This document shows positions 14,124 to 38,010 of a stretch of DNA of 64,000 bases, in pieces. The stretch is from Candidatus Margulisiibacteriota bacterium (GTDB lineage: Bacteria > Margulisbacteria > WOR-1 > O2-12-FULL-45-9 > XYB2-FULL-48-7). A program made the position numbers and the translations under genes. The notes below the pieces were generated by a model. It did no database searches, had not been told where the DNA came from, and saw nothing but the letters and a program-made list of their open reading frames with translations. Location of the stretch: the NCBI GenBank assembly GCA_041658645.1, contig JBAZZV010000006.1, positions 19,486-83,485 on the forward strand, in the 5' to 3' direction. Within the stretch, counting starts at the first letter, position 1. Each line of letters starts with the position of its first letter.

Positions 14124-14741
14124 ATGAAACCCAGCTCAATATCAGAGCCGGCCCCGGCAACGGGGAAACATTATAGATCGAGGATCACTCTGGCCGAACG
14201 AGCGCAGATTGCGGCGCAGGAGCGGACGATCGGTCTGGAGCAAGCGCGGGCGCACTGCAACTTAGCTCGGTTCGAGCTGGGCGGCAACCAATTTCAATTA
14301 TTTCGCAGCGGAGGATTCAACGATCCGGAGCTTGTAGCGCTGGTCGTTTCACATCTAGGTTCTGTATTTAAAGGTTTTTCGATCGGACTTTTTTTTACGG
14401 ACAACGATGGGACCACTTTTGTTCATGCCATGGTCGCGGCGGCCGGAGCTATCCATTCGTCAAGTCTTTATCAACCCGCCAAAACAGCACTCGAACTCTT
14501 CAAGCTCTGTTTCAATATTAAGGAGGGCCGCATGGAAATGAGCCATATAGAATCCAAGATACTGGGCAAAGGCGGCCAGGCTCTGATCGCGCTCTATAAT
14601 ATTGCCCGTGAGTATGGAGCCAAGATCATCAAATATGACGTCCGCGCAGCCAACCGGCCCGCCCAGTGTTTATATGCGAATCTGGGTTTCGGTACCCCCA
14701 ATAGTTGGCGTAACCAATGGATCGTTAAGATCATCCCCTAG
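14124..14741 (+). CDS. Hypothetical protein with C-terminal GNAT acetyltransferase-like region
   Basis: 205 aa; C-terminal ...GAKIIKYDVRAANRPAQCLYANLGF resembles GNAT core; the gene sits exactly between a 33-mer and lipoprotein upstream sequence that are contiguous in the second copy (16277-16320). Confidence 0.45.
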   Translation: MKPSSISEPAPATGKHYRSRITLAERAQIAAQERTIGLEQARAHCNLARFELGGNQFQLFRSGGFNDPELVALVVSHLGSVFKGFSIGLFFTDNDGTTFVHAMVAAAGAIHSSSLYQPAKTALELFKLCFNIKEGRMEMSHIESKILGKGGQALIALYNIAREYGAKIIKYDVRAANRPAQCLYANLGFGTPNSWRNQWIVKIIP

Positions 14742-14803
14742 TCCCCAATCAAAATTACGAATGATGAATGCGGACTGCGGAATAATTCTGTTATAATACG
14801 TCC

Positions 14804-14989
14804 GTGAAAAAGCTCTCGATCTTTTTTAGCCTGATAACGCTACTTTTGATCACTCTCTACGGTTGTGGCCAAAATAGCCAACCCTCAACCGGTCCGATTT
14901 TCACCGACCCCGCGACTAAGATCGCCGAGCTTTCGACCCAGGACTTTACTATTAAGATCTTTTACGAGGCGGTGGCGCTGGAGCCGTAA
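14804..14989 (+). pseudogene. Truncated N-terminal duplicate (61 codons) of the lipoprotein gene at 16376-17113
   Basis: 14742-14990 is ~90 % identical to 16311-16560, including upstream region, GTG start and lipobox LITLYGCGQ; stop after ...ALEP. Confidence 0.7.
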
Positions 14990-15052
14990 AGTGGTATAAT
15001 TACACACGAGCGGTTTTATAGGATCAGGAATTCGCATTACGGGGAGGAAAAA

Positions 15053-15613
15053 ATGAAGATATTGAAATGGTTTCTGATCGTTGTCCTTATCGTCATCGCC
15101 GCCGTGCTCTCTTTTCTCTGGTACCTGGGAGTTTTCAGCACTTTAAAAGTCAGCGAGAGGGAAATGGGCCCCTTCACCATCGCTTATAAGCATTACGTCG
15201 GGGAATATAAGGACACCGGCAAGGTCTTCATGGAAGTCTCTAATGCGATGAAAGATCTCGGCCTGGAGGTTTCTAATAAATCGGACAGCCTCGGCATCTA
15301 TTATGACAACCCGGCCACGGTGGCAAAAGACAAATTGAGAAGCGACTGCGGCATCGTCATTGCGGGCAAAGACCTGGCCAAAGCCCCGGCCCTGCTGAAA
15401 AAGGGCCTCAAAGTGATGACCATTGGGAAAAAGCCCTGCGTGGTGGCCGAATTCCCCATTCGAAACGTGATGTCATTCATGGTCGGCCCGGCCAAAGGCT
15501 ATCCCGCGCTGGCTAAATACGCCGCGCAAAAAAATCATAAAGCAGGCCGGATGTACGAATTCTATGACATGAAGAATAATTTGATCCTCTTCACGCTGGA
15601 GATCGCCAGGTAA
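15053..15613 (+). CDS. Membrane-anchored GyrI-like (effector/small-molecule-binding) domain protein
   Basis: N-terminal TM helix, then GyrI-like pattern incl. GIYYDNPATV...RSDCGIVI. Confidence 0.55.
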   Translation: MKILKWFLIVVLIVIAAVLSFLWYLGVFSTLKVSEREMGPFTIAYKHYVGEYKDTGKVFMEVSNAMKDLGLEVSNKSDSLGIYYDNPATVAKDKLRSDCGIVIAGKDLAKAPALLKKGLKVMTIGKKPCVVAEFPIRNVMSFMVGPAKGYPALAKYAAQKNHKAGRMYEFYDMKNNLILFTLEIAR

Positions 15614-15665
15614 AAAAGGACGGGCCGGTAAAAAAATGCATGCCCGGCCGGAAAACGGCGGCAGA

Positions 15666-16220
15666 TTAAGCTTTAATATTTTCAGCCAGGCGAAAAAAAC
15701 GGCCGAGTGTTCTTTTATCCGCAAAATCGTAACCGTGACTATGATACACAAAGTCGCAGGAAGTCACAACATTCTGCTTTTTGCCGATCAAAGTTGACGT
15801 TAGTTCATACCCGCTCACTGATAATTGAGCACCCAAAATCTTATAGGTGTCATCCAATTCGGTCATGTTCAGCAGCCGAAATTCGCGGCCGGGCTCTCTA
15901 TTCCGCCACCCGATATAAGCCATGGCATCCTCATAATTGATGCAATCCACGGAAGCACCGGCTTTGCCTCTTTTTACAAGAGAAATAAGTGGCCGCGCGT
16001 TGTCCCCCGTGATCTGATAGTCGGACTCTTTGACGAATTTACGGAATTGGCCGACCGTGACTTCGCCTCTCATGACCCTGTATTTTTTCCCCGGGATCTC
16101 GATCATTTCTTCGCAACGAGGGCCCCTGCTACCCCTAACCGGCCCAAGCCCGGCCAGCCGCTGCGCCGGCAATCTTACTCCTGATCTTTTTATTTCCATA
16201 TATATCTTTCTCCTGTTCAT
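15666..16220 (-). CDS. FGE-sulfatase/SUMF1-family-like domain protein (short)
   Basis: YRVMRGEVTVGQFRKF...SVDCINYEDAMAYIGWRN resembles the FGE-sulfatase family fold; only 184 aa, possibly truncated. Confidence 0.4.
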   Translation of the reverse strand: MNRRKIYMEIKRSGVRLPAQRLAGLGPVRGSRGPRCEEMIEIPGKKYRVMRGEVTVGQFRKFVKESDYQITGDNARPLISLVKRGKAGASVDCINYEDAMAYIGWRNREPGREFRLLNMTELDDTYKILGAQLSVSGYELTSTLIGKKQNVVTSCDFVYHSHGYDFADKRTLGRFFRLAENIKA

Positions 16221-16375
16221 ATGTATATTGGAAAATAAATCGGGAGATTTCAGGCAATCTTAGCCAACCGAAAAGTCAGTCCCCTGAAATCCCCGCGATA
16301 ATTCACGGATTAGTCCCCAGTCAAAATTACGAATGATGAATGCGGACGGCGGAATAATTCTGTTATAATACGTCC

Positions 16376-17113
16376 GTGAAAAAGCTTTCGATCTTTTTTA
16401 GTCTGATAACGCTACTTTTGATCACCCTCTACGGCTGTGGCCAACAGAATCAAAGCTCCACCGGCCCGATTTTCACCGACCCCGCGACCAAGCTCGCCGA
16501 ACTGGCCAGCCAGGACTTTACTGTTAAGCTTTTTTACGAGGCGGTGGCGCTGGAGCCGAAGCTGAACCAGGCCGGGGTCCGGGCCAGCATCGGTTTCTGG
16601 TCGCGCTCGCCCAACCGGGACAATCTGGTCGTCCTCCTGAACACGATCAACGCTTACGTCTCAACCGAAACCTATCGGGCGATCTGGGATGAAGGGACGA
16701 CAACCGCTACCGCCCAGCAGTATCCCTCTTACATCACCATGAACAAGGAATACTGGTATGAGCGCGCTTATCCGTTAAGCGACGGGACAGTTTCGATCGA
16801 AGGGGCCCACTACGCCGACCCGCATCCGGTCACGACGCTCGAGGCGGACCTGATCTGGGGAGCTTATTCCCAGCGCTACACCGACACAGCCAAACTGATC
16901 CGGCAGGCGACCGGCATTACGGTCGAATCGTGGTGTTTTGTTCAGGGTGCGCGGGCGCCAAGAATATTCTACGCTTTCGAATTGCCCGAATTAGTCTCGC
17001 TGGAAGCAACCGGGGATGTCTACGTCCATTTCGCTACGACTTATGAAGCCAGTTGGTTAAACGCGAGCCAGTGGATAACAGGGACAACGAATGCCCCGAC
17101 GCCGGAGCCGTAG
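16376..17113 (+). CDS. Lipoprotein of unknown function (full-length copy); GTG start 6 nt after TATAAT
   Basis: MKKLSIFFSLITLLLITLYGCGQ lipobox; TATAAT 16364-16369. Confidence 0.7.
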   Translation: MKKLSIFFSLITLLLITLYGCGQQNQSSTGPIFTDPATKLAELASQDFTVKLFYEAVALEPKLNQAGVRASIGFWSRSPNRDNLVVLLNTINAYVSTETYRAIWDEGTTTATAQQYPSYITMNKEYWYERAYPLSDGTVSIEGAHYADPHPVTTLEADLIWGAYSQRYTDTAKLIRQATGITVESWCFVQGARAPRIFYAFELPELVSLEATGDVYVHFATTYEASWLNASQWITGTTNAPTPEP

Positions 17114-17136: not shown

Positions 17137-17826
17137 TTACTTTCCTGTCGTTTGTAGTGTAAGAATTATTTCTTGCGCCTCTTTCTCACGCATAACCAAA
17201 TGCGCCTTTGACCATTCCAGGGCCGCAATAATGGCCTTCTTCCAGGGTTTAGGCAATTCTTCATAGTAATCAATGATTAGTCGTTTGTCACTCGCCGTTA
17301 GCGCGAGTATCGCATGTTCAAGGTCTTTGCGTTTCTTATCTGTATTCTTTCTTCTGGCCGCGATTAACAGCTTGTGTAGTCCAAAACAAACCATATTCGG
17401 GACCAAAACATCAATGCTCTGTTCTTTTACCCATACCGGATTTTTAAAAAGGATATCAACAAATCGTAAAGGGATCGCCTTAATGCTTAGGTTCCTGACC
17501 TCTTTCGCCCCAACCTCTCCCCGACCCCTTTCCGGAGTCAAGAACTCTACTTTTAGATCTGTCCCCCACATATAGATCGAACCATCTGAATTAAACCCGG
17601 TTTTGAAACCCAATGGGGCCAACAACGCAGCAATATCAATTTTATTTTTGGCTTTATATGGGCTGGGGATAAGAAAATCAATATCTACAGTCCTAAAAGG
17701 ATACGCTTTCACGCCAAAATGTTTCTGATAAAGAAGAAAACACCAGCTACCGATCAACTCGACACCCTCATCCCATAAGCCGTTTTCCTGAAATACTCGC
17801 AATATTTTATGAACAATGCCGATCAT
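17137..17826 (-). CDS. Nucleotidyltransferase-fold protein (AbiEii/GSU2403-like putative toxin)
   Basis: 229 aa; ...FRTVDIDFLIP... NTase-like segment; ATGA overlap with upstream small gene. Confidence 0.5.
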   Translation of the reverse strand: MIGIVHKILRVFQENGLWDEGVELIGSWCFLLYQKHFGVKAYPFRTVDIDFLIPSPYKAKNKIDIAALLAPLGFKTGFNSDGSIYMWGTDLKVEFLTPERGRGEVGAKEVRNLSIKAIPLRFVDILFKNPVWVKEQSIDVLVPNMVCFGLHKLLIAARRKNTDKKRKDLEHAILALTASDKRLIIDYYEELPKPWKKAIIAALEWSKAHLVMREKEAQEIILTLQTTGK

Positions 17827-18263: not shown

Positions 18264-18461
18264 TTGCGTTTCGAATCGTGGTGTTTTGTCCAGGGTGCGC
18301 GGGCGCCAAGAATATTCTACGCTTTCGAATTGCCCGAATTAGTCTCGCTGGAAGCAACCGGGGATGTCTACGTCCATTTCGCTACGACTTATGAAGCCAG
18401 TTGGTTAAACGCGAGCCAGTGGATAACAGGGACAACGAATGTTCCGGCTCCGGAACCCTAG
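18264..18461 (+). pseudogene. C-terminal duplicate (65 codons) of lipoprotein gene 16376-17113
   Basis: 18262-18461 ~97 % identical to 16921-17113. Confidence 0.75.
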
Positions 18462-22436: not shown

Positions 22437-22919
22437 TCAGAAATAAATGTGCACGCCGAGATTGCTGTTCAGGAAATAAAGCCAGGTCGTCCGGCTCCCG
22501 GCCGACATCTGGCTAAGGTAAGTGGCGAAAAATACCTTGCCGTCCAGCGCGACATGATCGTTAATAAAGACCTCGCCGCCGACAAAAGGATTGAACGCCA
22601 CCCGGTCAAAAGAGACGCCGGCACTAGAGCCCTGATTGTCCTGGACCGTCGTGCCGATCTCGAGCAGGGTGTTCGGATAGACCTCGCGAACATAAAAAAG
22701 CCCCAGCGCGAGGTTGTCAATATTGCTGTCAGCCTGGCCGCTCTGCGTGCTGTTAGAGTAAAAGACGCTAAGATCTAACCCAAAATTGTTGTTCACGAAG
22801 CCCCGAACACTTAAAGAGGTAGCCCGCAGGCCGACCCCGGTCTTGCCGCCCAGCTCCAGCGCCAGCGACGTGCCGGCCAGTAACGTGACCAGGAGCAGAA
22901 GCAAACACGCTTTTTTCAT
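22437..22919 (-). CDS. Small outer-membrane β-barrel protein (paralog 1)
   Basis: Signal peptide MKKACLLLLLVTLLAGTSLA; C-terminal ...HIYF. Confidence 0.6.
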   Translation of the reverse strand: MKKACLLLLLVTLLAGTSLALELGGKTGVGLRATSLSVRGFVNNNFGLDLSVFYSNSTQSGQADSNIDNLALGLFYVREVYPNTLLEIGTTVQDNQGSSAGVSFDRVAFNPFVGGEVFINDHVALDGKVFFATYLSQMSAGSRTTWLYFLNSNLGVHIYF

Positions 22920-22929
22920 GAATTTCTCC

Positions 22930-23415
22930 CTATAAATAAATGTGCGCGCCGAGCTCGCCGGTCAGGACGTTAAGCGCAGTCGACCTGGACCCGGCTTCCA
23001 TCTGGCTGCTGTAAGCGCCAAAGAAGACCTTGCCGTCCAGTCCAACGTGGTCATTGATAAAGCACTCCGCTCCGATGAACGGATCGAGCTCGAGGCCGCT
23101 GTAAAAGGTGCCGGCATCGTACCCCTGCCACCCCAGCACATTCACGCCGATCTCAAGCAGTGTATTGGGGTAGATCTCCCACGCCCTAAAACAGCCGAGC
23201 GAATAATCGTATTCGGTGCTGTCCTGCTGGCCGCTCCGGGTCCTGTTAAAATAACTGGCCGTTACATCGAAGCCCAGATTATTGTTCACGAAGCGCCGGA
23301 CCGAAAAGCCGCTAACCTGCAGGCCGAGCCCGGTTTTACCGCCAAGCTCCATCGCCATCGACATGCCGGCCAGCAACGTAACCAGGAGCAGAAGCAAACC
23401 TGCCTTTTTCATCAA
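22930..23415 (-). CDS. Small outer-membrane β-barrel protein (paralog 2, tandem duplicate)
   Basis: ~50 % identical to the neighbour; signal peptide; C-terminal ...HIYL. Confidence 0.6.
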   Translation of the reverse strand: MMKKAGLLLLLVTLLAGMSMAMELGGKTGLGLQVSGFSVRRFVNNNLGFDVTASYFNRTRSGQQDSTEYDYSLGCFRAWEIYPNTLLEIGVNVLGWQGYDAGTFYSGLELDPFIGAECFINDHVGLDGKVFFGAYSSQMEAGSRSTALNVLTGELGAHIYL

Positions 23416-23541: not shown

Positions 23542-24660
23542 TCACCGGCGATGGGCGATCAGCCAATCCAAGCTCCTTTCCCAAACCTCACCTTCCGCGT
23601 TATTACCAATGACCAGATCGTTGTGCCCGCTCCCTTTGATGACCACAAAATTCGTCTCAGCTTGAGGCGTCAAGGCTTTTTGGGCCAGGCGGACGCTTTC
23701 CGGCGGAGCCAATTTATCCTTTTCGCCGGCAATAAATAAACAGTTCGGCCGCTCCCCTCGCCTGCTTCTCAAACCGGCATAGTAATCAAAATCCCCGCCT
23801 AATGAAACAAACCCCTCGCGAATGAATTGACTATATGAGTTTTCCAGGCCGGAAGGGATCGGCTCAACGATTCTGGCAAAAAAAGCGCGCAAAGTCTTAT
23901 GTTTTACATTATCTGGTTCATATAAAAAATCAAACTGCCTGCTTTTTAAGGCTCGATCCGGCAATAAAGCGGCCAGACTGGCAAAGAGATGGAGTTTGGC
24001 CGAAAGAGTCCCGCCGATCGTTTGTTCTTCCGCTCCTAAAATCTTTGAGAACCGGTTTATATTAGCGATCAAACGAGCCAAAGAAAGAGTAATGCGAATT
24101 GGGCTGCCGATCGCCACCAAATTGCCGATCCGATCGTCACCGTATTTTGCCAGATAGGCATAAGCCAGCATCCCGCCCATGCTAAAACCGACCCAGGAAA
24201 GGCGCTCGGTCCCCGCGTCTTTAGCTACCAGGTCGAGGACCAGCGGCAAATCAAGATTGACCATTTGGTCAAAATTCAAAGCGGGCGACACATTATAACG
24301 TTTACCGTAATAAACGCTCTCGGGGCAATGGCGGGAGACAAAACGGTTATAAACCAGCTCCGAACTTGGGTAATGCCAAAGATAAACCGCGAACCCCTGA
24401 CTGGCCAACAAATTAGCAAAAGACCTGGCATGATCAAAAGTCAGGATCTGGCCGTTATCCGTTCTTAAACGGAAAAGATTGCCGTTACAGGCGATCCCTG
24501 GGGCCATAATGACCGGTCCCAGCCGCGGCTTCCAGGCGGCGGTGGTGGTGATCTTTTTTACGAAGACTTCCCGTCCACCCTGGTTCGCGAACAGGCTTTT
24601 GCCCGTTAAATAATACGGACTGGTCAACCGTGAATGATCTTTAGGAGCAATGATTGTCAT
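23542..24660 (-). CDS. α/β-hydrolase-fold protein (lipase/esterase-like)
   Basis: GFSMGG nucleophile elbow; 372 aa. Confidence 0.65.
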   Translation of the reverse strand: MTIIAPKDHSRLTSPYYLTGKSLFANQGGREVFVKKITTTAAWKPRLGPVIMAPGIACNGNLFRLRTDNGQILTFDHARSFANLLASQGFAVYLWHYPSSELVYNRFVSRHCPESVYYGKRYNVSPALNFDQMVNLDLPLVLDLVAKDAGTERLSWVGFSMGGMLAYAYLAKYGDDRIGNLVAIGSPIRITLSLARLIANINRFSKILGAEEQTIGGTLSAKLHLFASLAALLPDRALKSRQFDFLYEPDNVKHKTLRAFFARIVEPIPSGLENSYSQFIREGFVSLGGDFDYYAGLRSRRGERPNCLFIAGEKDKLAPPESVRLAQKALTPQAETNFVVIKGSGHNDLVIGNNAEGEVWERSLDWLIAHRR

Positions 24661-24744
24661 ATCACTATGACTTCGCTGAAAATAACCGGGGATTTCAAGG
24701 GGATTGCCAAGCCGCTGTTCGCCATGTCATTGCAGTTAAATAAA

Positions 24745-24880
24745 TGTCCTAGCCATCGAAACATCATGCGACGAGACCTCCGCTTCTGTAGTAAAAGACG
24801 GGAGCGAAGTTTTGTCGAACGTCATCTCTTCCCAGGTCGAATTCCACAAAAAATACGGCGGGATCGTGCCGGTGGTTTGC
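24745..24880 (+). pseudogene. Degenerate duplicate of the tsaD 5' end (first ~45 codons)
   Basis: ~75 % nt identity to 25912-26046, ending in the identical 22-mer aaatacggcgggatcgtgccgg. Confidence 0.7.
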
Positions 24881-24907
24881 TTCCCCCAAGCGATTAATTG
24901 ACTTCTC

Positions 24908-24923
24908 CGGTGTAATATATTAC
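24908..24923. promoter_or_regulatory. Perfect 16-bp palindrome GTGTAATATATTACAC plus extra GGTGTAA half-site, 25 nt upstream of the MNT gene (putative TA operator)
   Basis: Direct reading of sequence. Confidence 0.5.
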
Positions 24924-24948
24924 ACTTATCGGTGTAAGGCCAAACAAT

Positions 24949-25503
24949 ATGATCTCCCTGAAATCAGAAATAACACAGCAAGTATTGAACTATTTTTTCC
25001 TGAACCCGCAGGAAAGCCTTTATATCAATGAGCTGGCCAGGCAGCTTTCCCTTGACAAAAGGAACCTGGTAAAAAAGATCAAAGAGCTGGAAAATGATGG
25101 TCTTTTGATCAGCTGGTCGCGCGGCAATCTGAAGCTTTACGCCATTAACCGAAAGTTCCCCTTATACAAGGAGTACAAAAACATTGTGCTCAAAACAGTC
25201 GGCTTTGAAAAAGAACTTAAAGACGTTCTTAAAGGAACGGCCGGCGCCGAGAAAGCCTATATTTACGGCTCATATGCGAGGGATAAAATGGACGCTCACA
25301 GCGACATTGATCTTCTGGTTATCGGCAACCACGGGGTTGTTCTGCTGCAAAGAAAGATTTCACGCCTCCAGAAAAAAATTGGCCGTGAAATAAATGCCGT
25401 GAATATGAGCGCCGGGGAGTTCAGGAAACGCAGGGCAAACCAAGACCCTTTCCTTCAAAACATTTTAAAAAACAAATATATTGAGATCAAAAATGAAATT
25501 TGA
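24949..25503 (+). CDS. Minimal nucleotidyltransferase (MNT-type) with N-terminal wHTH
   Basis: GSYARD...SDIDLLVIG NTase motif; AT-rich. Confidence 0.7.
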   Translation: MISLKSEITQQVLNYFFLNPQESLYINELARQLSLDKRNLVKKIKELENDGLLISWSRGNLKLYAINRKFPLYKEYKNIVLKTVGFEKELKDVLKGTAGAEKAYIYGSYARDKMDAHSDIDLLVIGNHGVVLLQRKISRLQKKIGREINAVNMSAGEFRKRRANQDPFLQNILKNKYIEIKNEI

Positions 25504-25897
25504 TAACAAATATTTCAGCCAGCATGATTTCCCCAAGGCGCAGATCGAGAAAAACCTTGGCAATGCCATTAAAGACTTGAATATCGCTAAAAAAGACAAT
25601 ATTTTAGATGTAAAATTTAATTACGCTTACTCCGCCCTATTAAAAACCGGCCTCACTTTATTGAGCCAACAACAGATCAAAATAAAAAGCGCGCCCGGAC
25701 ATCACATCAAGATCATTGAAGCAATGGCTGAATTATTAAAAGATGATTCGATCGCTGACGTTGGGAACGCCATGCGTTCAAAGCGAAACATTGATATGTA
25801 TTCCGGCGGCATTGAAGTCACCAAAAAGGAATGCGAGGAATATATTGATTTTGTTGATAAGATTGTTGTTCAAGTAAAAGCTTTTCTCGCTTTTTAA
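25493..25897 (+). CDS. HEPN-domain protein, partner of the MNT
   Basis: Overlaps the MNT gene by 11 nt; α-helical ~135 aa with MRSKRNIDMY segment. Confidence 0.55.
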   Translation: MKFDNKYFSQHDFPKAQIEKNLGNAIKDLNIAKKDNILDVKFNYAYSALLKTGLTLLSQQQIKIKSAPGHHIKIIEAMAELLKDDSIADVGNAMRSKRNIDMYSGGIEVTKKECEEYIDFVDKIVVQVKAFLAF

Positions 25898-25899
25898 AT

Positions 25900-26949
25900 A
25901 TGCTTATCCTCGCCATCGAAACCTCCTGCGACGAAACCGCGGCGGCCGTGGTCCGTGACGGCCAGGCCGTCCTCTCGAGCGTCATCTCCTCCCAGATCGA
26001 TTTCCACCGGAAATACGGCGGGATCGTGCCGGAGGTCGCCGCCCGGAAACATATCGAGGTCATAACGCCGGTCATCCAGGAGGCGATTTCAATCGCCGGT
26101 GTCGGCTTTAAGGAGATCGACGCCGTCGCCGTCACTTACGGCCCCGGCCTGATCGGTTCGCTGATCGTCGGCCTCTCCGCCGCCAAAGCGATCGCCTGGT
26201 CACTTGGCAAACCACTGATCGGAGTGAACCACCTTGAGGGTCACATCTACGCTAACTTCTTAACTTCCAACTTCAAACCTCAAACTTCAAAACAAATTAT
26301 AAATCCAAAATCAGAAATTCCAAACTTTCCATTCATTTGTCTTCTGGTCTCCGGCGGCCACACCATGATAATAAAAGTGAATGGTCACGGGCAGTACGAA
26401 ACCATTGGGCGGACTCGCGATGACGCCGCGGGGGAAGCTTTCGACAAGGTCGCCCGTTTTCTCAAACTCGGTTACCCCGGCGGCCCAATCATCGATAAAT
26501 TAGCTAAAGAAGGAAACCCCAAGGCAATTAACTTTACCCGCCCTATGCTAAATGATGGGTACGACTTCTCGTTTAGCGGGATCAAGACTGCTGTAGTCAA
26601 CTTTGGTACCAGGTACCAGGTACCAGGTACCAGGGTCGAAGATGTCGCAGCGTCGTTCCAGCAAGCCGTCGTCGACGTCCTAGTCGAGAAGACAGTCCGG
26701 GCCGCGCTTGACCACGGTTGCCGGACGGTTACAATCGCCGGCGGGGTCTCGGCTAACTCCCAGCTCCGCCAGGAGCTAATGACCAAAGGCAAAGCAGCCG
26801 GACTCAACGTCATCATCCTACCGTTCGAGTACTGCACCGACAACGCCGCCATGATCGCCTGCGCCGGTTATTACAAATTCATTAATTCGTCATTAGACAT
26901 TAGTCATTCGTCATTTTCCCTAGCCCCCGTTGCCAGTCTCAAGTTGTAG
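25900..26949 (+). CDS. tsaD: tRNA N6-adenosine threonylcarbamoyltransferase TsaD, carrying three in-frame repeat insertions
   Basis: [31 protein letters not shown]-terminal CTDNAAMIA; inserts at 26258-26335, 26609-26636, 26873-26905. Confidence 0.85.
   Translation: MLILAIETSCDETAAAVVRDGQAVLSSVISSQIDFHRKYGGIVPEVAARKHIEVITPVIQEAISIAGVGFKEIDAVAVTYGPGLIGSLIVGLSAAKAIAWSLGKPLIGVNHLEGHIYANFLTSNFKPQTSKQIINPKSEIPNFPFICLLVSGGHTMIIKVNGHGQYETIGRTRDDAAGEAFDKVARFLKLGYPGGPIIDKLAKEGNPKAINFTRPMLNDGYDFSFSGIKTAVVNFGTRYQVPGTRVEDVAASFQQAVVDVLVEKTVRAALDHGCRTVTIAGGVSANSQLRQELMTKGKAAGLNVIILPFEYCTDNAAMIACAGYYKFINSSLDISHSSFSLAPVASLKL
26258..26335. repeat. Family-2 dispersed repeat (single arm) inserted in-frame in tsaD
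   Basis: cttccaacttcaaacctcaaacttcaaaacaaattataaatccaaaatc...; relatives at 34646-34720 and 58655-58790. Confidence 0.6.
26873..26905. repeat. Family-1 repeat arm (cgtcattagacattagtcattcgtcatt) forming the 3' end of tsaD
   Basis: Similar to 648-765 and 46744-46783. Confidence 0.55.
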
Positions 26950-26987
26950 CGCTTGCCCCGAGAATATCGAGGGGTTATAATGGCTCC

Positions 26988-27266
26988 ATGAAGATCGATG
27001 TGGAGCATGTCGCCCGGCTCGCCCGGCTCGGTTTAACCGAAGAAGAAAAAGCGCTCTTTTCCCAACAGCTCTCCGCCATCCTCGACTTTGCCGCCAGCTT
27101 GCAAAAGCTTGAGACTGGCGACCTGCCGCCGACCGCCCACGCCATCCCGATGAAGAACATCTTCCGCGAAGATGAAGCTATCCCTTGCGAAAATGTCGAT
27201 GATATTCTGGCAAATGCGCCTGAGGAAGAGGAACATATGTTCAAGGTACCTAAAATACTGGAATAA
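26988..27266 (+). CDS. gatC: Asp/Glu-tRNA amidotransferase subunit C
   Basis: MKIDVEHVARLARLGLTEEEKALF... canonical GatC. Confidence 0.85.
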   Translation: MKIDVEHVARLARLGLTEEEKALFSQQLSAILDFAASLQKLETGDLPPTAHAIPMKNIFREDEAIPCENVDDILANAPEEEEHMFKVPKILE

Positions 27267-27267
27267 A

Positions 27268-27335
27268 TGTAGGGACAACCCTTGTGGTTGTCCGAAATAA
27301 ACGGACAGGGACAAGCCCTGTCCCTACATTTTCCA
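27268..27335 (+). other. Composite nested palindrome/stem-loop between gatC and gatA
   Basis: atgtagggacaacccttgtggttgtcc...ggacagggacaagccctgtccctacat: two inner hairpins enclosed by outer stem atgtaggga/tccctacat. Confidence 0.5.
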
Positions 27336-27344: not shown

Positions 27345-28796
27345 ATGTACACAAAAACAGCCCACGAACTTTGTAATGTCCTCTCCGAACGGAAGATAAG
27401 CTCCGTTGAATTGACCGGCCTGGTCCTGGCCAGGATCGAACAGGTCGAACCGCGGATCAAGGCGTTCGTCAGCTGGGACCAAGAGGCCGCGCTGGCCCAG
27501 GCTTACGCCGCCGATGAAAGGTTGAAGAGCGGCCAGGGGGTTACCCCGCTAACCGGTATCCCGATCGCCGTCAAAGACAACATGTGCACTCGCGGGGTCA
27601 CCACGACCTGCGGCTCCAAGATACTTAGTAACTACCTCCCGCCGTATGACGGCACAGTCGTAGCCAAACTGAAGGCGGCCGGCGCGGTCATCGTCGGCAA
27701 AACGAACATGGACGAGTTCGCCATGGGCTCCTCGACCGAGAACTCCGCTTTCCATCCCACTCATAATCCGTGGGATACCGGCACCGTCCCCGGCGGCTCG
27801 TCCGGCGGTTCGGCCGCGGCGGTCGCCGCGCATGAAGCGATCCTGGCGACCGGTTCGGACACCGGCGGCTCGATCCGGCAACCGGCCGCTTTCTGCGGCG
27901 TGGTCGGGCTAAAACCGACCTACGGCCTGGTCTCCCGCTATGGGCTGGTCGCTTTCGCCTCATCGCTCGACCAGATCGGCCCGCTGACTAAAGATGTCGC
28001 CGACTCGGCTTTGCTGCTGAACGCGATCGCCGGCCATGATCCGAAAGACTCGACCTCGGTCAACCAACCGGTCCCCGATTACCTCGGGGCACTTCAGACC
28101 GATATCAAGCGCCGCCGGGTCGGCCTGATCAAGGAATTAATGGGGGCTGGGATCGCCCCCGAAGTCAAAGCGGCGGTCAAAGCGGCCGCCGACAAATTGT
28201 CCAACCTTGGGGCGGAGATCAGCGAGGTCTCGCTCCCCTCTTTCGAACACGCGGTCGCCACCTATTATCTGATCGCCCCGGCTGAAGCGAGCTCGAACCT
28301 CGCCCGCTATGACGGGGTTAAATATGGCCAGAGGTCCAAAGAGGCCAAAGACCTGATCTCAATGTATTACAACACCCGCCGGGAAGGTTTTGGCCCCGAA
28401 GTGAAGCGCCGGATCATGCTCGGCACTTACGCCCTCTCCGCCGGCTACTACGACGCTTACTATTTGAAAGCACTTAAGGTCCGGACGCTGATCAAGCAGG
28501 ATTTCGATCGGGCGTTCAGCGGCTGCGACGCGCTTATTTCCCCGACCGCCCCGACCGTCGCCTTCAAGCTCGGCGAAAAGACAGCCGACCCGCTCGCCAT
28601 GTACCTCTCCGACATCGCCACCATCCCGGTCAACCTGGCCGGCCTCCCGGCCATTTCTCTCCCCTGCGGCTTCAGCGGCAACCTGCCGATCGGCTTGCAG
28701 ATCATCGGCCCGGCTTTCGCCGAAGAGACGCTCCTCCGCCTCGCGTTCGCCTACGAACAAGGAACTGAATGGCACATAAAAAAAGCACCGCTCTGA
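27345..28796 (+). CDS. gatA: Glutamyl-tRNA(Gln) amidotransferase subunit A
   Basis: Amidase signature [13 protein letters not shown], 483 aa. Confidence 0.9.
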
Positions 28797-30241
28797 TCCT
28801 CGGGCTGGCCCTGACCGGACTGGCGGCCTGCGCCGCCCTGGCCGCCAGCCAGGCTGACATCAAGAAATTCCCGCCGGTCTCCGGCGAGATCTACGGCCAG
28901 GCCTCACCCAGCGTCCGCTCGATCACGGTCAACGGCAAACCGGTCTCCTTCGACTCCGGCCAGAACTTCAAGGCGGCCGTCAATCTCCGGCCGGGAGAAA
29001 AATATCTTGTCCTCAAGATCAATTACGAGGGATTGCGCATCATTAAAAAATACCTGATCTTAAGGAAGACCGCGATCAAGAAGTTCAAGGTCTTCGTCCC
29101 TAAAGAGAAGATCGAGAAGGATGTCCAGGCGTCAAAACGGGCCCGGGCGGCCGAGCTGAAAACGCAAAGGGGAGAACAGGCCAGACAGCGGGCCCTGCAA
29201 GCCCTGGCCAAGCAAGAACGGGCCAGGGTCCTCCAGGCCGAGCGGGAAAATAACTGGCTGAAGAAGGTCCCCTCACCCAAATTCTATGCCAAGGAATTCC
29301 GGGGGAGCAACGAAGTGCTCGCCCTTAACCAGGCGGTGGTGGGCGATAATTACGGACTCCCCTTCAAGACGCCGATCGATTCGGTCACCCGGCTCAATGA
29401 ATTGCTGAAAGTGACCAATTTTTACGAACTGGGCAGAAAGAAACATCCGAACGCCCCGCTCTCGCCGCAAGCCAGGGCCCTGGTCGAGGAAACCGCCGCT
29501 TACCGGGGGCGACCCTTTGAGCAGCTCTCCCCTTACCAGCAAAAGAAGGTCCTCCTCCTGAACCGCCTGTTGCTGGAAGCGTTCTATCCCTCTGTCCCCC
29601 AGCGGGATACCTGGTGGGTGGCGACGCCGAAAACAAAAGAAGAAGCTAAATGGCTGAAAGCGGTCCCTTCGCCGAAATATTACGCCAGCGAGTTCACCGG
29701 GGGAACGGCCGAGGTCGCCGCCCTCAACGAATTGATCGCCCGGGACAACTACGGTCTGCCGTTCCGCGCCCCGCTCGACTCGGTTGACCGGCTGAACGAA
29801 CTGTTACAGACGCCGAACTTCTATGAGTTGACCCAAAAGAAGAACAAGGTCTTTGTCCCCTCGCCGCTCCTGGCCGCCCTGATCAAGGAGACGGCCGACT
29901 ACCGTAACCTCCCCTTCTGGAAGCTTGATCCGGTCCGGCAGAAAAAGATCCGGCTGTTGAACCGCCTCCTCCTTTCAACCCTCTATCCGGAAGCGCCGCA
30001 GCGGGCCGCCTGGGGGATCACCGCGGCGGAAATGCCGCTCCCCAAGGTCAAGGAATATCTCTATGTCTGGGAATTCAGTGAAGGGAAGCTCCTCATCGCC
30101 AAGGAGACCAAAGGGAAATACTCGGCCGAGGTCTATCTCCCGGTCTCCCAGGAATGGCTTGACCTGCGCGGCATCAGCGAAGCGGAGCTCCGCCAGCTGA
30201 TCGAGAAACCGGTCAAAACCTTTAAACCTAAGAAAAAATAG
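28769..30241 (+). CDS. Secreted/lipoprotein hypothetical with two ~120-aa internal repeats
   Basis: Signal [23 protein letters not shown]; repeats [15 protein letters not shown]...NYGLPF...RLNELL...FYEL...LLNRLLL...YP..PQR; start overlaps gatA 3' end. Confidence 0.55.
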
Positions 30242-31272: not shown

Positions 31273-32715
31273 ATGAAATTCGAAACCGTGATTGGCCTCG
31301 AGACCCACGCCCAGCTTTTGACCAAAAGCAAGATGTTCTGCTCCTGCCCTAATCTCTTCGGCGACCAGCCGAACACCAATATCTGCCCGGTCTGCACCGG
31401 CCAGCCGGGGGTACTGCCAGTCATTAACAAACGAGCGGTCGAACTGGCGATCAAGACCGCCCTCGCCCTGAACTGTAAGATCGAGCCGCGGAATGTCTTC
31501 GCCCGCAAGCACTATTTCTATCCCGACCTGCCGAAGAACCTGCAAATATCCCAGTACGAACTCCCCCTGGCGACCGGCGGCTATTTAGAGATCGAAGTTG
31601 ACGGGGTCAAAAGAAAGATCGGCATCACCCGCATCCATCTCGAAGAAGATGCCGGCAAGCTCGTCCACCTGGGAGCCGCCCGGATCATGGGGGCCGAAGC
31701 TTCGCTGGTCGATTACAACCGGACCGGCACCCCGCTGATGGAGATCGTCTCCGAGCCGGACCTCCGCTCCCCCCGGGAAGCGGCCGTCTATACCCAAACG
31801 CTGGCCAACATCCTCCGCTATCTTGAGGTCTGCGACGCCAAAATGGAGGAAGGGTCGCTCCGCTGCGATGCCAACCTCTCGCTCCGCCCGGTCGGCGAGA
31901 AAAAACTCGGCACCAAGAGCGAGATCAAGAACATGAATTCCTATAAGGCGATCGAAAAGGCGCTCCTCGCCGAGGAAAAGAGGCACGCCGAGATCCTCGA
32001 GGAAGGCGGCAAGATCGTCCAGGAGACCAGGTTCTTTGACGACGTGACCGAAACGACCACCGGGATGAGGAACAAAGAATTCGCCCACGATTACCGCTAC
32101 TTCCCTGAACCGGACCTGGTCCCGATCGAACCGGCAGCCGAATGGGTCGAGGCGATCCGGCAAACTATCGGCGAACTCCCCTGGCAGCGGCAGTTCCGCT
32201 TCACCTCGGAGTTCAAGCTACCAGCTGAAATAGCGGCGATCCTCCTGGCCGACAAACCGATGGCTGATTTCCTCGACGCGACGGCCAAGCTCTACGATAA
32301 ACCGGCGATCATTGCCAACTGGTTGGTCGGTGACCTGAACGGTTATCTTAATGAGAACAAATTAAAGATCTCCGCCCTGAAGTTTGTCCCGGCGCAACTA
32401 GCCGAATTGCTCCAATTGATCGAGGCCGGCACGCTAAGTAACAAGATAGCCAAAACTGTGTTGAGCGAAGTCTTAAAGACCGGCCAGCAGGTCAAAGACG
32501 TGATCGCCAAATCGGGCTTGACGCAGATCAGCAATGAGGATGAACTCAAAAAGATCGTTCAGGAAGTGATCGACAACAATCCAAAGCAAGTTGAACAGTT
32601 TAAGTCGGGCAAAGAAACAGTGATGATGTTCCTGGTCGGTCAAGTGATGAAGTTATCAAAAGGCCGGGCCAACCCGGCCTTAGCCAATCAGCTGCTCAAG
32701 GAAGCGCTCAAATAG
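31273..32715 (+). CDS. gatB: Asp/Glu-tRNA amidotransferase subunit B
   Basis: MKFETVIGLETHAQL... canonical GatB, 480 aa. Confidence 0.9.
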   Translation: MKFETVIGLETHAQLLTKSKMFCSCPNLFGDQPNTNICPVCTGQPGVLPVINKRAVELAIKTALALNCKIEPRNVFARKHYFYPDLPKNLQISQYELPLATGGYLEIEVDGVKRKIGITRIHLEEDAGKLVHLGAARIMGAEASLVDYNRTGTPLMEIVSEPDLRSPREAAVYTQTLANILRYLEVCDAKMEEGSLRCDANLSLRPVGEKKLGTKSEIKNMNSYKAIEKALLAEEKRHAEILEEGGKIVQETRFFDDVTETTTGMRNKEFAHDYRYFPEPDLVPIEPAAEWVEAIRQTIGELPWQRQFRFTSEFKLPAEIAAILLADKPMADFLDATAKLYDKPAIIANWLVGDLNGYLNENKLKISALKFVPAQLAELLQLIEAGTLSNKIAKTVLSEVLKTGQQVKDVIAKSGLTQISNEDELKKIVQEVIDNNPKQVEQFKSGKETVMMFLVGQVMKLSKGRANPALANQLLKEALK

Positions 32716-34389: not shown

Positions 34390-35058
34390 ATGAGCGATAT
34401 CGCCTACCAAATAGGGGATTCCCTGTATTTAAATATTACCAACCGCTGCACGAACGAATGCCCGTTCTGTATCCGGAATAAAGGCCGGCAATTCAACCAG
34501 CAATATGACCTCTGGTTGAATAAAGAACCAACTGTTGATGAGATCATGGCCGCGATCGGCGATCCGGCTAAATACGAACAAATAGTCTTTTGTGGATATG
34601 GTGAACCGACAATTCGGCTGGACATCATTAAGACGGTTACCGCCGAATTTAAATCCAAACTTCAAACCTCAAACATCCAAACAAAAGACAAATCCCAATT
34701 ATCCAACCTCAAAAACGCCGCATCACCTATTATCAGGCTGGATACGAATGGAACCGCCAACCTCTTCTGGGGGCGGAACATTTTGCCGGAATTGAAAGGA
34801 TTGATCGATTTCATTTCCATCAGCCTGAACGCGGAAAACGCTGAAAAATACAATAAACTTTGCCGGCCGATGTTCGGCGAGCAAACCTATGCCGCCGTCC
34901 TCGATTTTATCCGAACGGCCAAGAGTTTCATTCCCGTGGTCGAAGCGACAATCGTCGACCTCCCCGGAGTGGATAAGGAAGCGTGTCGCAAGGTCGCTAA
35001 AGAGCTGGGGGCGAGTTTCCGGGTCCGCCCCTATTATGAGGAGAGCTATGTCAAATAA
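34390..35058 (+). CDS. Small radical-SAM protein with in-frame family-2 repeat insertion
   Basis: CTNECPFC (Cx3Cx2C) near N-terminus; ~222 aa; insertion ...FKSKLQTSNIQTKDKSQLSNLKNAAS... Confidence 0.6.
   Translation: MSDIAYQIGDSLYLNITNRCTNECPFCIRNKGRQFNQQYDLWLNKEPTVDEIMAAIGDPAKYEQIVFCGYGEPTIRLDIIKTVTAEFKSKLQTSNIQTKDKSQLSNLKNAASPIIRLDTNGTANLFWGRNILPELKGLIDFISISLNAENAEKYNKLCRPMFGEQTYAAVLDFIRTAKSFIPVVEATIVDLPGVDKEACRKVAKELGASFRVRPYYEESYVK
34646..34720. repeat. Family-2 dispersed repeat (single arm) in-frame within the radical-SAM gene
   Basis: aaatccaaacttcaaacctcaaacatccaaacaaaagacaaatcccaattatccaacctcaaaaac. Confidence 0.6.
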
Positions 35059-36379
35059 GTATGATGTCGTTGTCTTAGGCGGCGGGCCGGGTGGTTACGC
35101 CGCGGCGATCCGGGCCGCGCAGCTGGGAGCGAAAGTCGCCCTGATCGAGAAGGACAAGCTCGGTGGCGTCTGCCTCAACCGCGGTTGCATTCCCACCAAA
35201 GCCATCATCGCCTGCACCTCGCTTTTCGAAAAGTTCCAGAAAGCGGAAAGTTTTGGCATCTCGGCCGGCAAGCCGACCATCGATCTCGCCAAAGTGATCG
35301 AGCGAAAGAATACGCTCGTAGCCAAGATCGTCAAAAACCTGCAGGGCTTGATCGAAAAGAACAAGATCGAGATCATAAACGGCAACGGGAAAGTCATAGC
35401 TCCGGGAAACATTGAAGTCACATTAAATAACGGTAGTAAATTGTCAGTTGTTAGTAGTAAGTTAATTATTGCTACCGGGTCTGTCCCCAGCTGTCTGCCC
35501 GGGTTGAGCTTTGATAAAGACCGCTACCTCTGCAGCGACGATGCGCTTGAGCTGAAAGAAGCACCGGCTAAGATTACGATCGTCGGCGGCGGAGTGATCG
35601 GCATTCACTTCGCGGCAATCTACAGTACACTGGGTTCCGAGGTCACTATTTATGAAGCCCTGCCGGAAATATTGACCGGTATCGATGAAGAAGTCGTCGC
35701 TTTGGTCAAAAGGATCTTAAACCGAAAGAAAGTCAAGGTTTTGACCGGCACCCGCTTCGACCCGGCCCAAGCCAAAGGCAAGACACTGATCTGCGTCGGC
35801 CGCACACCAAATATTATGGGGCTCGAAACTTTGGGCCTGAAAATGAGCAAGCGAAGCGTTTGGGTCAGCGAAAAGATGGAAACAAGTGTCAAAGGCGTCT
35901 ACGCGGTCGGCGACGTTTGCAGCCAAACCATGCTGGCGCATGTCGCGTATGAACAGGGCGTCGTGGCGGCGGAAAACGCGCTGGGCGGGAATAGAACGTT
36001 CAATTACGATTGTATTCCGATCGGCATTTATACCAATCCGGAGATCGGTGCCGTCGGGCTGACCGAAAAAGCGGCGCGCGAGAAAGGCATTAATGTCAGT
36101 ATCGGCAAGTTCCCCTTTGGCGCGCTGGGAATCTCGCAAGCCATGGGTGAGATCGAAGGATTCGTCAAATTTGTTTGTGATGAAAAAGGCAAGATTTTAG
36201 GCGTTCATATCATCGGACCGGAGGCCACGTCACTCATCGGCACGGCTGCCCTGGCGATAAAGAACAATTTATCGATTGAACAGATCGCAGAAACTTTCCA
36301 GTCCCACCCCTCCTACCCCGAAGGTCTGCAGGAAGCGGCCGAAGCGGTCCTAAAGCGGGCGCTGCATATTTTTAATTGA
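35047..36379 (+). CDS. FAD-dependent pyridine-nucleotide-disulfide oxidoreductase, dihydrolipoyl dehydrogenase family
   Basis: GGGPGGY FAD motif, GGVCLNRGCIPTK redox-disulfide motif, NAD-binding GGGVIG, C-terminal dimerisation domain. Confidence 0.8.
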
Positions 36380-36394: not shown

Positions 36395-37852
36395 TTAGCC
36401 CGCGAATACCTTATCAATAATACTTCTAAAAAAAGGAAGAAAGCTTTGGTTTTCCCATGATTTCCCATAACTTCCTGAAAGACTGCTCATTAATTCATGT
36501 GAAAGGCCAATTTCTTCTTTCCAAGGATCGCCCGGAGCTAATCCATATGAAGAAAACGAATAATCTTCAGGCTCGATCCATTTTACTAATTCTCTTCGCA
36601 CTCTCGTTCCCGGGTACGGCATAAGAGGAAATATTCTCACTGAAACCTTTACCCCTTCTTCCGATAATCCCAAAAAAGTTTCCATGTCATCAGCGATGGC
36701 TCGAGCTGACTCCCTGTCTTCAAAAGGAGTTATTATATAAGATAAAAATAGTTTATGCGGCGGAATGTCCGGAGCCCGGGTATGCACTGTTTTTAAAGCC
36801 CGAATAAACTTCGCCAGAGCCTCTTTCTCGTCATCAAGTTGTTTCTGGCTTTTAACCTTCCCTCGCAAGTTACTGCCGGCGACCCGAGCGCTTTGTTCCG
36901 TCACCACATCGCGCCCGATGAAAAATTTAAAAAAGGCGTGCCGCAACAAAAAGGGCCCCAATTTGTTCCGATAATCATCCGAAACTATCAAGGATGGGTC
37001 AAGAAACGTTATTTTAAAAACTGGTCGTTCTCTGTCATATAAGCCTTCAAATACCTCACGATAATAATCAAATCTTCTTGTTTCAAATGGGTTGGAATCA
37101 TATAGTGACAATTGACCTGGAGCAAGATTAGCAAAAACCGGCCGGAGGCTGTCAATCACTGTTCCGGCTGCAAATAACGGGGAACGGCTTAAAGGAATCG
37201 CGCAAAAACCGCATCTGTTTTCACATGAGTCATCAAAGATCGTTCCAATCAGTCTCGATCCTTCGGTATATGTATAGGGGACTGTTCGTAATTGTGGGAA
37301 TTTACCGTAACCATGCCCCTTAACCTCTTCGCCGGCAGAGCCTAAATAATAAAGCCCGGGACTGGCTATCAGATCCTTTTGACCATGTTGATTAATAACT
37401 AAATCAATAAACGGCTGAGCGTGACCAACCACTACCGAATCCGCCAATTTTGAGACCAAAGCGGTTTCAACCGAATCGCGGTAACCCTCAAGTTTCTCTC
37501 TTTTAAAATGCGGCCCTCCCGCTACTATTCTTGCTTGCGGAAATTCTTGCCGTATCAATTCAGCTAAAGCTGTAAATTTAAAATACTCTTCCGAAGTGGT
37601 CGACAGGCCGAAAACCGCGTCGTTTTCACCCGCCACCGTTCTTTTCAGCTCTTCGATGATTACTGCCCTATCGCGCCAGAGATCCAGACCAACGGCAGGG
37701 TCCCCAGGAAAATGAAGCACATTATTGAATCCTGCCTGTCTTAACGAATCCTCAATCGTTTTTAATCCTAGACGCTTTTCTGGGTTAAAATGATGATTGA
37801 GCCAATGTGCCCCGATGCGGTAGTAACCAGCGCTTGTTAAAATGACTTTCAT
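36395..37852 (-). CDS. B12-binding-domain radical-SAM protein; lower GC
   Basis: CENRCGFCAIP Cx3Cx2C; N-terminal Rossmann-like B12-binding-like region; start MKVIL (alternative 37885). Confidence 0.6.
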   Translation of the reverse strand: MKVILTSAGYYRIGAHWLNHHFNPEKRLGLKTIEDSLRQAGFNNVLHFPGDPAVGLDLWRDRAVIIEELKRTVAGENDAVFGLSTTSEEYFKFTALAELIRQEFPQARIVAGGPHFKREKLEGYRDSVETALVSKLADSVVVGHAQPFIDLVINQHGQKDLIASPGLYYLGSAGEEVKGHGYGKFPQLRTVPYTYTEGSRLIGTIFDDSCENRCGFCAIPLSRSPLFAAGTVIDSLRPVFANLAPGQLSLYDSNPFETRRFDYYREVFEGLYDRERPVFKITFLDPSLIVSDDYRNKLGPFLLRHAFFKFFIGRDVVTEQSARVAGSNLRGKVKSQKQLDDEKEALAKFIRALKTVHTRAPDIPPHKLFLSYIITPFEDRESARAIADDMETFLGLSEEGVKVSVRIFPLMPYPGTRVRRELVKWIEPEDYSFSSYGLAPGDPWKEEIGLSHELMSSLSGSYGKSWENQSFLPFFRSIIDKVFAG

Positions 37853-37940
37853 AATAGTTTTATCCTGTTTTTCATTGCCTGACATATATCGATATCATTA
37901 AAAATATATTTCATTCATTTATAAATCTTTATATAAAGAT

Positions 37941-37999: not shown

Positions 38000-38010
38000 C
38001 GCTGTCTATC

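Follow-up and report, generated by a model that had tools for sequence, protein, structure and literature searches.

A probable recombination scar lies at the 5' end of tsaD in the 64,000-nucleotide stretch of DNA analyzed here (the window), which derives from a bacterium of the Saganbacteria/WOR-1 lineage bearing the NCBI label Candidatus Margulisiibacteriota. Immediately upstream of tsaD, whose function in synthesis of N6-threonylcarbamoyladenosine (t6A) is essential in most bacteria, lies a gene pair encoding a minimal nucleotidyltransferase (MNT) and a partner protein of the HEPN fold, and a second copy of the tsaD start is found on the far side of this pair, as the earlier note on this DNA had described. 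The locus probably marks a hot spot for small cassettes that is anchored in the 5' end of tsaD and driven by homology. As judged from its substitutions, the upstream copy is the frozen 5' piece of another tsaD allele which was functional until recently and not a decayed local duplicate. In addition, relatives of this bacterium possess cassette arrays bounded by tsaD-start remnants across the clade. Both the arrays and the allelic nature of the scar go beyond what the earlier note had seen. The elements of the locus are the following.

24740..24876, plus strand: tsaD 5' remnant of the long type, with clear homology at 24747-24876 corresponding to tsaD codons 1-45
24851..24872 and 26011-26032, plus strand: 22-mer AAATACGGCGGGATCGTGCCGG, identical in remnant and tsaD
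24877..24897, plus strand: filler of about 21 nt from the end of homology to the promoter
24898..24926, plus strand: promoter-like site TTGACT-17-TACACT
24910-24925, plus strand: putative operator, the 16-bp palindrome GTGTAATATATTACAC, overlapping the -10 element
24908-24915 and 24930-24937, plus strand: putative operator direct repeat CGGTGTAA flanking the palindrome (operator span 24908..24937)
24949..25503, plus strand: MNT-type gene (184 aa)
25493..25897, plus strand: gene of the HEPN-fold partner (134 aa), overlapping the MNT gene by 11 nt
25900..26949, plus strand: intact tsaD (PF00814, 4.9e-97), its ATG positioned 2 nt after the stop codon of the HEPN-fold gene

The match of about 75% between 24745-24880 and the tsaD start, from which the earlier note had set out, is borne out by in-register alignment, MAFFT and self-BLAST of the window, the latter giving an ungapped direct repeat of 130 nt between 24747-24876 and tsaD positions 25907-26036 with 76.15% identity (E 9.9e-20) and a spacing of 1160 nt between the two copies. 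The remnant is open across 45 codons with neither frameshift nor stop, and its frame from 24740 yields 44 tsaD-like residues followed by VVCFPQAIN and a stop codon inside the cassette promoter. Its sole clear defect is loss of the start codon, as the codon-1 equivalent at 24740-24742 reads ATA opposite the ATG of tsaD at 25900, and an in-frame TAA directly precedes it. The 22-mer, which encodes KYGGIVP and forms the final homology block, is indeed shared by both copies. However, it is kept at 20-22 of 22 positions in all close tsaD orthologues, indicating coding conservation, and by itself cannot serve as diagnostic evidence of an attachment core. Nevertheless, the block is a plausible candidate for the crossover site, and the abrupt switch from consensus-like coding to unrecognisable sequence after the 22-mer would fit a crossover within it. 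The filler shows only about 39% in-register identity to tsaD and represents the remnant's tail after decay or else unrelated DNA. Two homologous long remnants at a related locus (L084) extend to about nt 157 of tsaD and abut the same cassette promoter.

The earlier note had called the upstream copy a diverged duplicate of the tsaD start, and this part has to be revised. Differences between remnant and intact tsaD are distributed over codon positions 1, 2 and 3 as 7, 6 and 19, respectively. According to the Nei-Gojobori method (NG86), the ratio of nonsynonymous to synonymous divergence (dN/dS) is 0.19 for the comparison with the resident tsaD and 0.03-0.09 for those with tsaD of three related loci (L084, L085, and L088), while pairs of working tsaD orthologues give 0.08-0.17; dS, at 0.9-1.5 and about 0.9 between the window copies, is close to saturation. 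Moreover, the remnant peptide is only two residues away from the orthologues P0015 and P0022 and near the clade consensus, and its nucleotide sequence is closer to tsaD of other genera (80-81%) than to the neighboring intact copy (75-76%). The bias to synonymous changes, the orthologue-like dN/dS and the consensus-like peptide are all in line with an allelic remnant instead of a decayed one. The entire structure is contiguous at 99.85-100% identity in ENA ERZ27249422 k141_324037 and Logan SRR8449812_23978; since its junctions are shared with these independent assemblies, it is not an artefact of assembly.

For comparison, tsaD loci on contigs of Saganbacteria/WOR-1/Margulisiibacteriota (L-numbers designate the loci or contigs compared) were searched for additional tsaD starts with regular expressions, a 26-nt probe and a sequence-only model, the census with the latter covering 1.04 Mb. 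All additional starts are found upstream of tsaD and in tsaD orientation, with up to four per locus, as listed here.

Window: one long remnant
L002: one long and one short remnant
L084: two long and two short remnants
L085-87: two short remnants
L090-94: three short remnants
L101: one short remnant
L103: two short remnants
L005: one short remnant
L006: one short remnant

In a short remnant, about 33 nt of the tsaD start precede about 16 conserved nt, either TCCAAAAGCACAGCC or TCCACAAACACATCAG. By sequence comparison, this tail may derive from tsaD nt 141-160 or thereabouts, the variant in L101 matching L084 tsaD at 14 of 18 positions. The long remnants are mutually only 71-75% identical, as distant from each other as unrelated alleles. 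Between the remnants, cassettes of 0.8-3 kb carry one to five cargo genes on either strand, none of them encoding a recombinase, and the cargo is unrelated from one cassette to the next (MNT/HEPN, HIT, a membrane open reading frame (ORF), GH8, SLT/FG-GAP, a lipoprotein, and methyltransferases). No extra copy of the own tsaD start was found at 77 tsaD loci of other phyla (813 kb), where all matches of the model fall on the true tsaD start.

Orthologous loci were also inspected for the empty site, a check that the earlier note had suggested. Clean sites exist in the more distant relatives L104-L107, where tsaD comes after a native extended -10 promoter (TGyTATAAT) and 8 kb are free of remnants, whereas the corresponding junction of hydrolase gene and tsaD was not found in the nearest relatives L101 and L102, which have other genes in between. 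The DNA 5' of the leftmost long remnant in L084 (A) matches the native upstream region of tsaD in L106; hence, remnant A is the old start left in place, with the cassettes having pushed the working gene rightwards. The second long remnant (L084_B) has its start changed from ATG to ATT, so that both long scars lying behind a cassette are devoid of ATG (ATA in the window, ATT in L084_B). The MNT of L084_B is 85% identical to those of L098 and L100, which are not associated with tsaD, and 70% identical to the window MNT. The tsaD-linked MNT cassettes are accordingly not monophyletic, and association with tsaD arose more than once. Besides, in L103 (1534-2671) the core gene rsgA is located between two short tsaD-start remnants in direct orientation, while L085 and L104 encode it on the other strand, indicating that arrays also capture or rearrange neighboring core genes. 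A supposed cassette swap between L085 and L087 was rejected, as a 72-nt indel within the lipoprotein gene is their only difference.

One event can be followed before and after insertion, as sample ERZ27249422 holds both states. L001 shows the HEPN-TAA-AT-ATG-tsaD arrangement of the window, likewise present in L003, while L002 has gained an additional cassette. From 22564 to tsaD nt 21, L002 is 99.85% identical to the window. The window's tsaD start ATGCTTATCCTCGCCATCGAA is stranded there, the sequence reading TCCGCCTGCGAT-CCACAAACAC and then entering a 0.8-kb cassette with a minus-strand membrane ORF and the TGCTATAAT promoter. The new start behind it, ATGTTGATTTTATCTATTGAA, is AT-rich and joined to the same tsaD body at ACCTCCTGCGACGAAAC, from where the sequence is near-identical to the window for about 110 nt. 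In L002, a short scar has thus formed from the window-type tsaD start. L108 has the HEPN-TAA-AT-ATG junction as well, and L002 and L090 retain it in a stranded scar. The exchange from window to L002 maps to GAA (tsaD nt 19-21), with mismatches on either side. Further right, tsaD of L002 alternates between identical and about 72%-identical blocks, and L108 represents another mosaic allele behind the same HEPN-tsaD junction. Over tsaD-gatC (window 25900-27081 versus L002 4154-5296 and L108), identical blocks and blocks of about 70-75% identity are separated by at least seven boundaries within 1.2 kb. Such co-occurring mosaic alleles suggest frequent recombination among diverged alleles at the tsaD locus, the mosaicism being due either to recombination with divergent lineages at very high frequency or to assemblers switching between strains. 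The right side of L002 may be a long donor segment.

The insertion pattern is not confined to tsaD. As the earlier note had stated for lipoprotein and lpd loci, three further inserts in the window lie between copies of a gene end that are 62-248 nt long.

14739-14986, versus the gene at 16376-17113: lipoprotein 5'-end repeat (248 nt, 90%), comprising promoter and first 61 codons, copy upstream
16923-17113 and 18271-18461: lipoprotein 3'-end repeat (191 nt, 96%), all differences being in the final 21 nt
36311-36372 and 37951-38012: lpd 3'-end repeat (62 nt, 85%) around a B12-binding/radical-SAM-like gene (36395-37885, minus strand)

The lipoprotein 3'-end repeats enclose an NTP_transf_8 gene (17137-17826, minus strand) together with a 141-aa ORF, a second toxin-antitoxin-like insert, and for lpd an empty site is available in L103, where lpd adjoins the iPGM gene. 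Such anatomy at three other loci of the window speaks for homology as a general driver of the process and against an enzyme specific to tsaD. Flanking repeats are not a signature of the MNT/HEPN module, an option that was rejected as none are present around the modules in L095, L098 and between gatA and gatB of L084; the repeats consequently reflect DNA entry at these sites and not the module. A gatB-start remnant beside the latter pair was likewise rejected, as the window ORF 28769-30241 is a position-conserved secreted protein and gatB is located at 31273-32715. Between the lipoprotein 5'-end copies (14082-16558), GyrI-like and FGE-sulfatase-like genes are found. A 34-nt piece at 14082-14115 (97%) is contiguous in the downstream lipoprotein copy and split off in the upstream one by the ORF 14124-14741, which looks like an ORF-only insertion receiving its stop codon from the target.

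In the favored reading, a self-contained MNT/HEPN cassette with its own autoregulated promoter would have been joined to a tsaD start and would have entered, or been retained, through recombination within the conserved first 135-160 nt or so of tsaD. This could proceed by insertion-duplication, i.e., a Campbell-like single crossover of a circular intermediate carrying a tsaD 5' segment, or by unequal exchange in which a tsaD-like segment of transforming DNA (scar plus promoter, about 30-160 nt) pairs with the resident start. Homology-facilitated illegitimate recombination and merodiploids generated by transformation are known precedents (PMC3240628, PMC3784515). Either event would duplicate the start, add the cassette and leave tsaD intact, with the copy at the gene body working and the other one stranded upstream. 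The stranded copy would be the previous resident start or a start imported with the DNA, and would then have changed from ATG to ATA. Start-codon loss in the long scars may be due to selection against a truncated TsaD peptide. With a scar lacking ATG, repeat-mediated loss of the cassette would be lethal because TsaD is essential. Repetition of the process would have built the cassette arrays before tsaD throughout the clade.

Several observations weigh against this homology-driven route. The exchange interval in L002 comprises only GAA, and for a reciprocal event this stretch of identity would be too short for RecA. The approximately 16 nt following the 33-nt tsaD part are conserved among cassettes of unrelated cargo, as would be expected of a recombinase-binding arm. 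The right junction of the window's long remnant differs from that of the short remnants, and more than one process may act. With 78-81% identity to the nearest orthologues for the remnant and 76-82% for the intact 5' end, neither distance nor GC content singles out the former resident. Finally, neither a circular intermediate nor a donor genome nor an excised form was seen, and pattern scans of viral and JGI contigs came back empty.

Among the rival explanations, a site-specific recombinase encoded in trans is a serious one, albeit rather unlikely in our estimation. It would insert small circular cassettes within the first 33 nt or so of tsaD, the cassette's pseudo-start (attP) becoming the new start and the old one remaining as attL scar. 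The constant build of the short remnants whatever the cargo (33 nt of tsaD plus about 16 conserved nt), the window-to-L002 exchange within a 3-nt interval between mismatches, which looks reciprocal, the strictly co-oriented scars with new cassettes adjoining tsaD, and the precedent of the SXT/R391 integrase targeting the 5' end of prfC (PMC2791158) would all be accommodated. However, the genes called up to 6-8 kb from each of the nine arrays include no integrase or transposase, the window ORFs of 150 aa or more lack both as well, and scar lengths vary (21, 27, 33, 135, and about 157 nt), the window scar being of the long type with its other junction. The same anatomy at unrelated window genes, too, is at odds with such an enzyme, and the divergent mosaic on the right side of L002 is compatible with a long donor fragment. 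Nine short remnants and the intact window tsaD start form no significant single-stranded DNA hairpin of attC-like or HUH type (z -0.59 to +1.33 versus shuffles), and two scans of viral contigs for short-remnant patterns gave zero matches, with neither an attP-like sequence nor a free element. Entertained only tentatively is an integron-like accretion platform without linked integrase in Saganbacteria/Margulisiibacteriota, with the tsaD coding start as attachment site. Each cassette would bring a replacement start, often with a native-type TGyTATAAT promoter, and strand the old one as a scar. If so, selfish modules such as MNT/HEPN would be coupled physically and transcriptionally to an essential gene, and loss of the scar's start codon (ATA in the window, ATT in L084_B) would lock the cassette in place.

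It is improbable that a foreign MNT/HEPN fragment was inserted only once, by illegitimate or homology-facilitated illegitimate recombination, into an ancestral tsaD and has been vertically inherited since, unrelated to the arrays of short remnants. Such an insertion would account for the right end of the window remnant, which has no counterpart among short remnants, for the HEPN-TAA-AT-ATG junction common to L090 and L108 and for the homologous long-remnant/promoter junctions in L084 A and B. Yet a neutral scar should have decayed over such divergence (TsaD 70-80% identical at the amino acid level), whereas the remnant is consensus-like, and both the polyphyly of the tsaD-linked MNT cassettes and the mutual distance of the long remnants contradict a single event. 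Local tandem duplication of the tsaD start, with the spare copy diverging and the cassette inserted in between, would match the direct-repeat geometry. It is very improbable, however, and already contradicted by the greater similarity of the spare copy to tsaD of other genera than to its neighbor, and a dN/dS of 0.19 at dS of about 0.9 over 45 intact codons is not the record of a spare copy either. Hardly credible is a chimeric metagenome assembly of two strains' tsaD regions. The sequence is of the metagenome-assembled type and co-occurring alleles are mosaic, but identical junctions are found in three independent assemblies, analogous structures exist in other organisms and samples, and the sequence past the 22-mer is not tsaD, so that no shared k-mer path explains the join.

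Based on domain matches and a structural model, the insert is a pair of an MNT and a HEPN-fold protein. The MNT gene product combines a winged helix-turn-helix (HTH)-like N-terminus with a minimal nucleotidyltransferase domain showing the GS-x10-DxD motif YGSYARDKMDAHSDID. Residues 88-158 match PF18765 (8.9e-10) and PF01909 (2.4e-9), Pfam matches of residues 6-59 to winged-HTH families are weak and sub-threshold, and the NCBIfam MntA_antitoxin model scores 7.8e-7, which is under its curated cutoff. Homologues (n = 639, 60-86% identical) are spread over several candidate phyla (Omnitrophica, Patescibacteria, NPL-UPA2, and others), the module family is also found away from tsaD, and distant relatives of the same architecture reside on conjugative plasmids. 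No MNT homologue was present in the phage records searched.

The 134-aa partner has no match in Pfam or NCBIfam, and a sequence search of its family against the PDB resulted in chance-level XPF matches only (E 0.24). Nevertheless, in hhalign the family profile aligns over its full length (probability 93.8%, E 1.7e-7) with a PF05168-positive HEPN protein that is paired with a related MNT in L084, and some of the 214 homologues are labelled UPF0332 by JGI. With the AlphaFold (AF2) model of the partner (pLDDT 86.8), the best Foldseek matches in the PDB are HEPN proteins, i.e., AF_0298 (2hsb, TM 0.68-0.72) followed by 7bxo (MntA-HepT), 1ufb (TT1696) and 3o10 (sacsin HEPN), at TM scores of 0.63-0.72 overall and weak E-values (0.02-0.1). 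Invariant motifs of the family are MRSKRNxxxY(A/S)GG and GHH. In 32 family members, R98-N-x3-Y103 is invariant and there is no histidine at the position of the Rx4-6H motif, the invariant GHH lying elsewhere. Hence, of the HEPN toxin announced in the earlier note the fold is retained but not the catalytic motif. With an invariant tyrosine in place of the catalytic histidine, the toxin chemistry is uncertain, an RNase activity of the partner is doubtful and the label RNase toxin would be an analogy. By analogy to MntA-HepT, the pair may function as a toxin-antitoxin system in which the MNT would bind the operator via its HTH and neutralize the HEPN-fold partner, possibly by nucleotidylylating the loop with the invariant Tyr103. 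Altogether, the module is a non-canonical new member of the MNT/HEPN kind.

With a GC content of 0.30-0.46, the cassette clearly differs from the tsaD 5' end (0.62-0.65) and the window as a whole (0.52). The palindrome GTGTAATATATTACAC, proposed earlier as operator, is single-copy in the window, with zero matches in 100 shuffles. In six homologous cassettes, whose proteins are about 70% identical and whose upstream DNA is unrelated, promoter (TTGAC(A/T) and TACACT) and palindrome are near-invariant, which makes the operator credible and fits its predicted binding by the MNT HTH. The operator pattern CTCCGGTGTAATANATTACAC gave zero exact matches in JGI metagenome contigs. Directly 3' of the MNT/HEPN module in L098, which is not in tsaD context, three 23-nt repeats CCCGCAAGGAATGCGGGATAAAT are arranged head to tail at 5008-5085, each of them forming a small hairpin. 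Between HEPN-fold gene and tsaD, neither a terminator-like site nor an own promoter was found, and tsaD is probably co-transcribed with the cassette.

The left flank of the locus is formed by the following gene.

23542..24660, minus strand: alpha/beta-hydrolase gene (PF00561, 9.4e-12), divergent from the tsaD side

Orthologues of the hydrolase are encoded in L101 and L102 (82-83% identity at the amino acid level) with different neighbors on the tsaD-facing side. Likewise, the order gatC, gatA, gatB, radical SAM and lpd is conserved 3' of tsaD, while the upstream side is not. Beside the hydrolase gene (22437-23415), two tandem paralogous 160-aa genes (71% DNA identity) encode outer-membrane-protein-like sequences with signal peptides and no Pfam match. 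Within tsaD itself, an in-frame AT-rich insert NFLTSNFKPQTSKQIINPKSEIPNF at 26258-26335 is built of a ACTTCAAACCTCAAAC-type motif, which also appears at 34655-34700 and 9561-9591, the radical SAM gene containing it in frame, and forms an inverted pair around 58.7 kb (58651-58780). Orthologous TsaD proteins have other low-complexity inserts in the same two loops, and tsaD of L108 carries a different 30-nt insert matching window positions 40652-40688. These in-frame inserts may be small repeat elements inserting in frame. Between gatC and gatA (27265-27331), a 30-nt inverted repeat with 80% complementarity and a 7-nt loop is present. Farther away, about ten tandem repeats of approximately 115 nt (75-85% identical) at 48423-49672 are part of a 698-aa ORF (48407-50503, weak DUF6894).

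Should the pattern hold, a portable landing pad for horizontally moving cassettes would be provided by the 5' end of a highly conserved essential gene, a route of gene gain without element-encoded integrase in a poorly known bacterial lineage. It would also explain the fixation of defence or addiction modules beside essential genes. The scars, as datable frozen pieces of once-working alleles, would allow reconstruction of transfer history and donors, and annotation pipelines will overlook them or call them small ORFs. The large and widespread family of MNT partners with HEPN fold and without catalytic histidine is a candidate for other toxin chemistry or for control by tyrosine nucleotidylylation.

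Compared with type VII MNT-HEPN systems such as MntA-HepT from Shewanella (7bxo/6m6w) and the archaeal and Thermus proteins (2hsb, 1ufb, and 1wol), the module shares the upstream GS-x10-DxD nucleotidyltransferase overlapping a HEPN-fold four-helix protein of about 130 aa and a promoter palindrome in the style of autoregulation. It differs by the winged-HTH-like region at the N-terminus of the MNT and by a partner falling outside the Pfam and NCBIfam HEPN models, with R-N-x3-Y in place of Rx4-6H. Regarding the insertion itself, SXT in prfC is similar in being a mobile insert that enters a conserved housekeeping gene at its 5' coding end, the gene still functioning with a 5' end adjacent to the element (PMC2791158); SXT insertion reportedly replaces the prfC 5' end (Hochhut and Waldor, in 1999). 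However, SXT is an element of about 100 kb with its own tyrosine integrase and a short fixed core, whereas inserts of 0.8-3 kb with scars of 21-157 nt and no integrase found are characteristic here. Integron arrays and clusters of attC sites lacking integron integrases (CALINs) resemble the tsaD arrays in that small, functionally unrelated cassettes are gained serially at a single site of the chromosome and a repeated element borders each of them. In contrast to them, there is no intI nearby and no attC-like hairpin, the cassettes are on both strands with their own promoters, and what is repeated is part of the coding start of an essential gene. Of the features defining a site-specific element or integron, integrase, attC and fixed scar length were not found.

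Closer are insertion-duplication, homology-facilitated recombination and merodiploidy, in which one-sided or overlapping homology likewise gives an insert flanked by a duplicated target stretch, in agreement with all four window loci (PMC3240628, PMC3784515). Minimal mobile elements of Neisseria involve cassette exchange between conserved flanking genes by transformation (PMC1797815). They are alike in that differing whole-gene cassettes occupy the same inter-gene position from strain to strain, with homology in the conserved flanks driving the exchange, but replacement is clean in Neisseria while the cassettes before tsaD accumulate, each event leaving a truncated flank copy. To our knowledge, insertion-duplication and related processes are known mainly from laboratory crosses, and natural, clade-wide recurrent anchoring on the start of one essential gene has not been described. 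In its anatomy, the insertion before tsaD is a natural recurrent variant of insertion-duplication, homology-facilitated recombination, merodiploids and minimal mobile elements.

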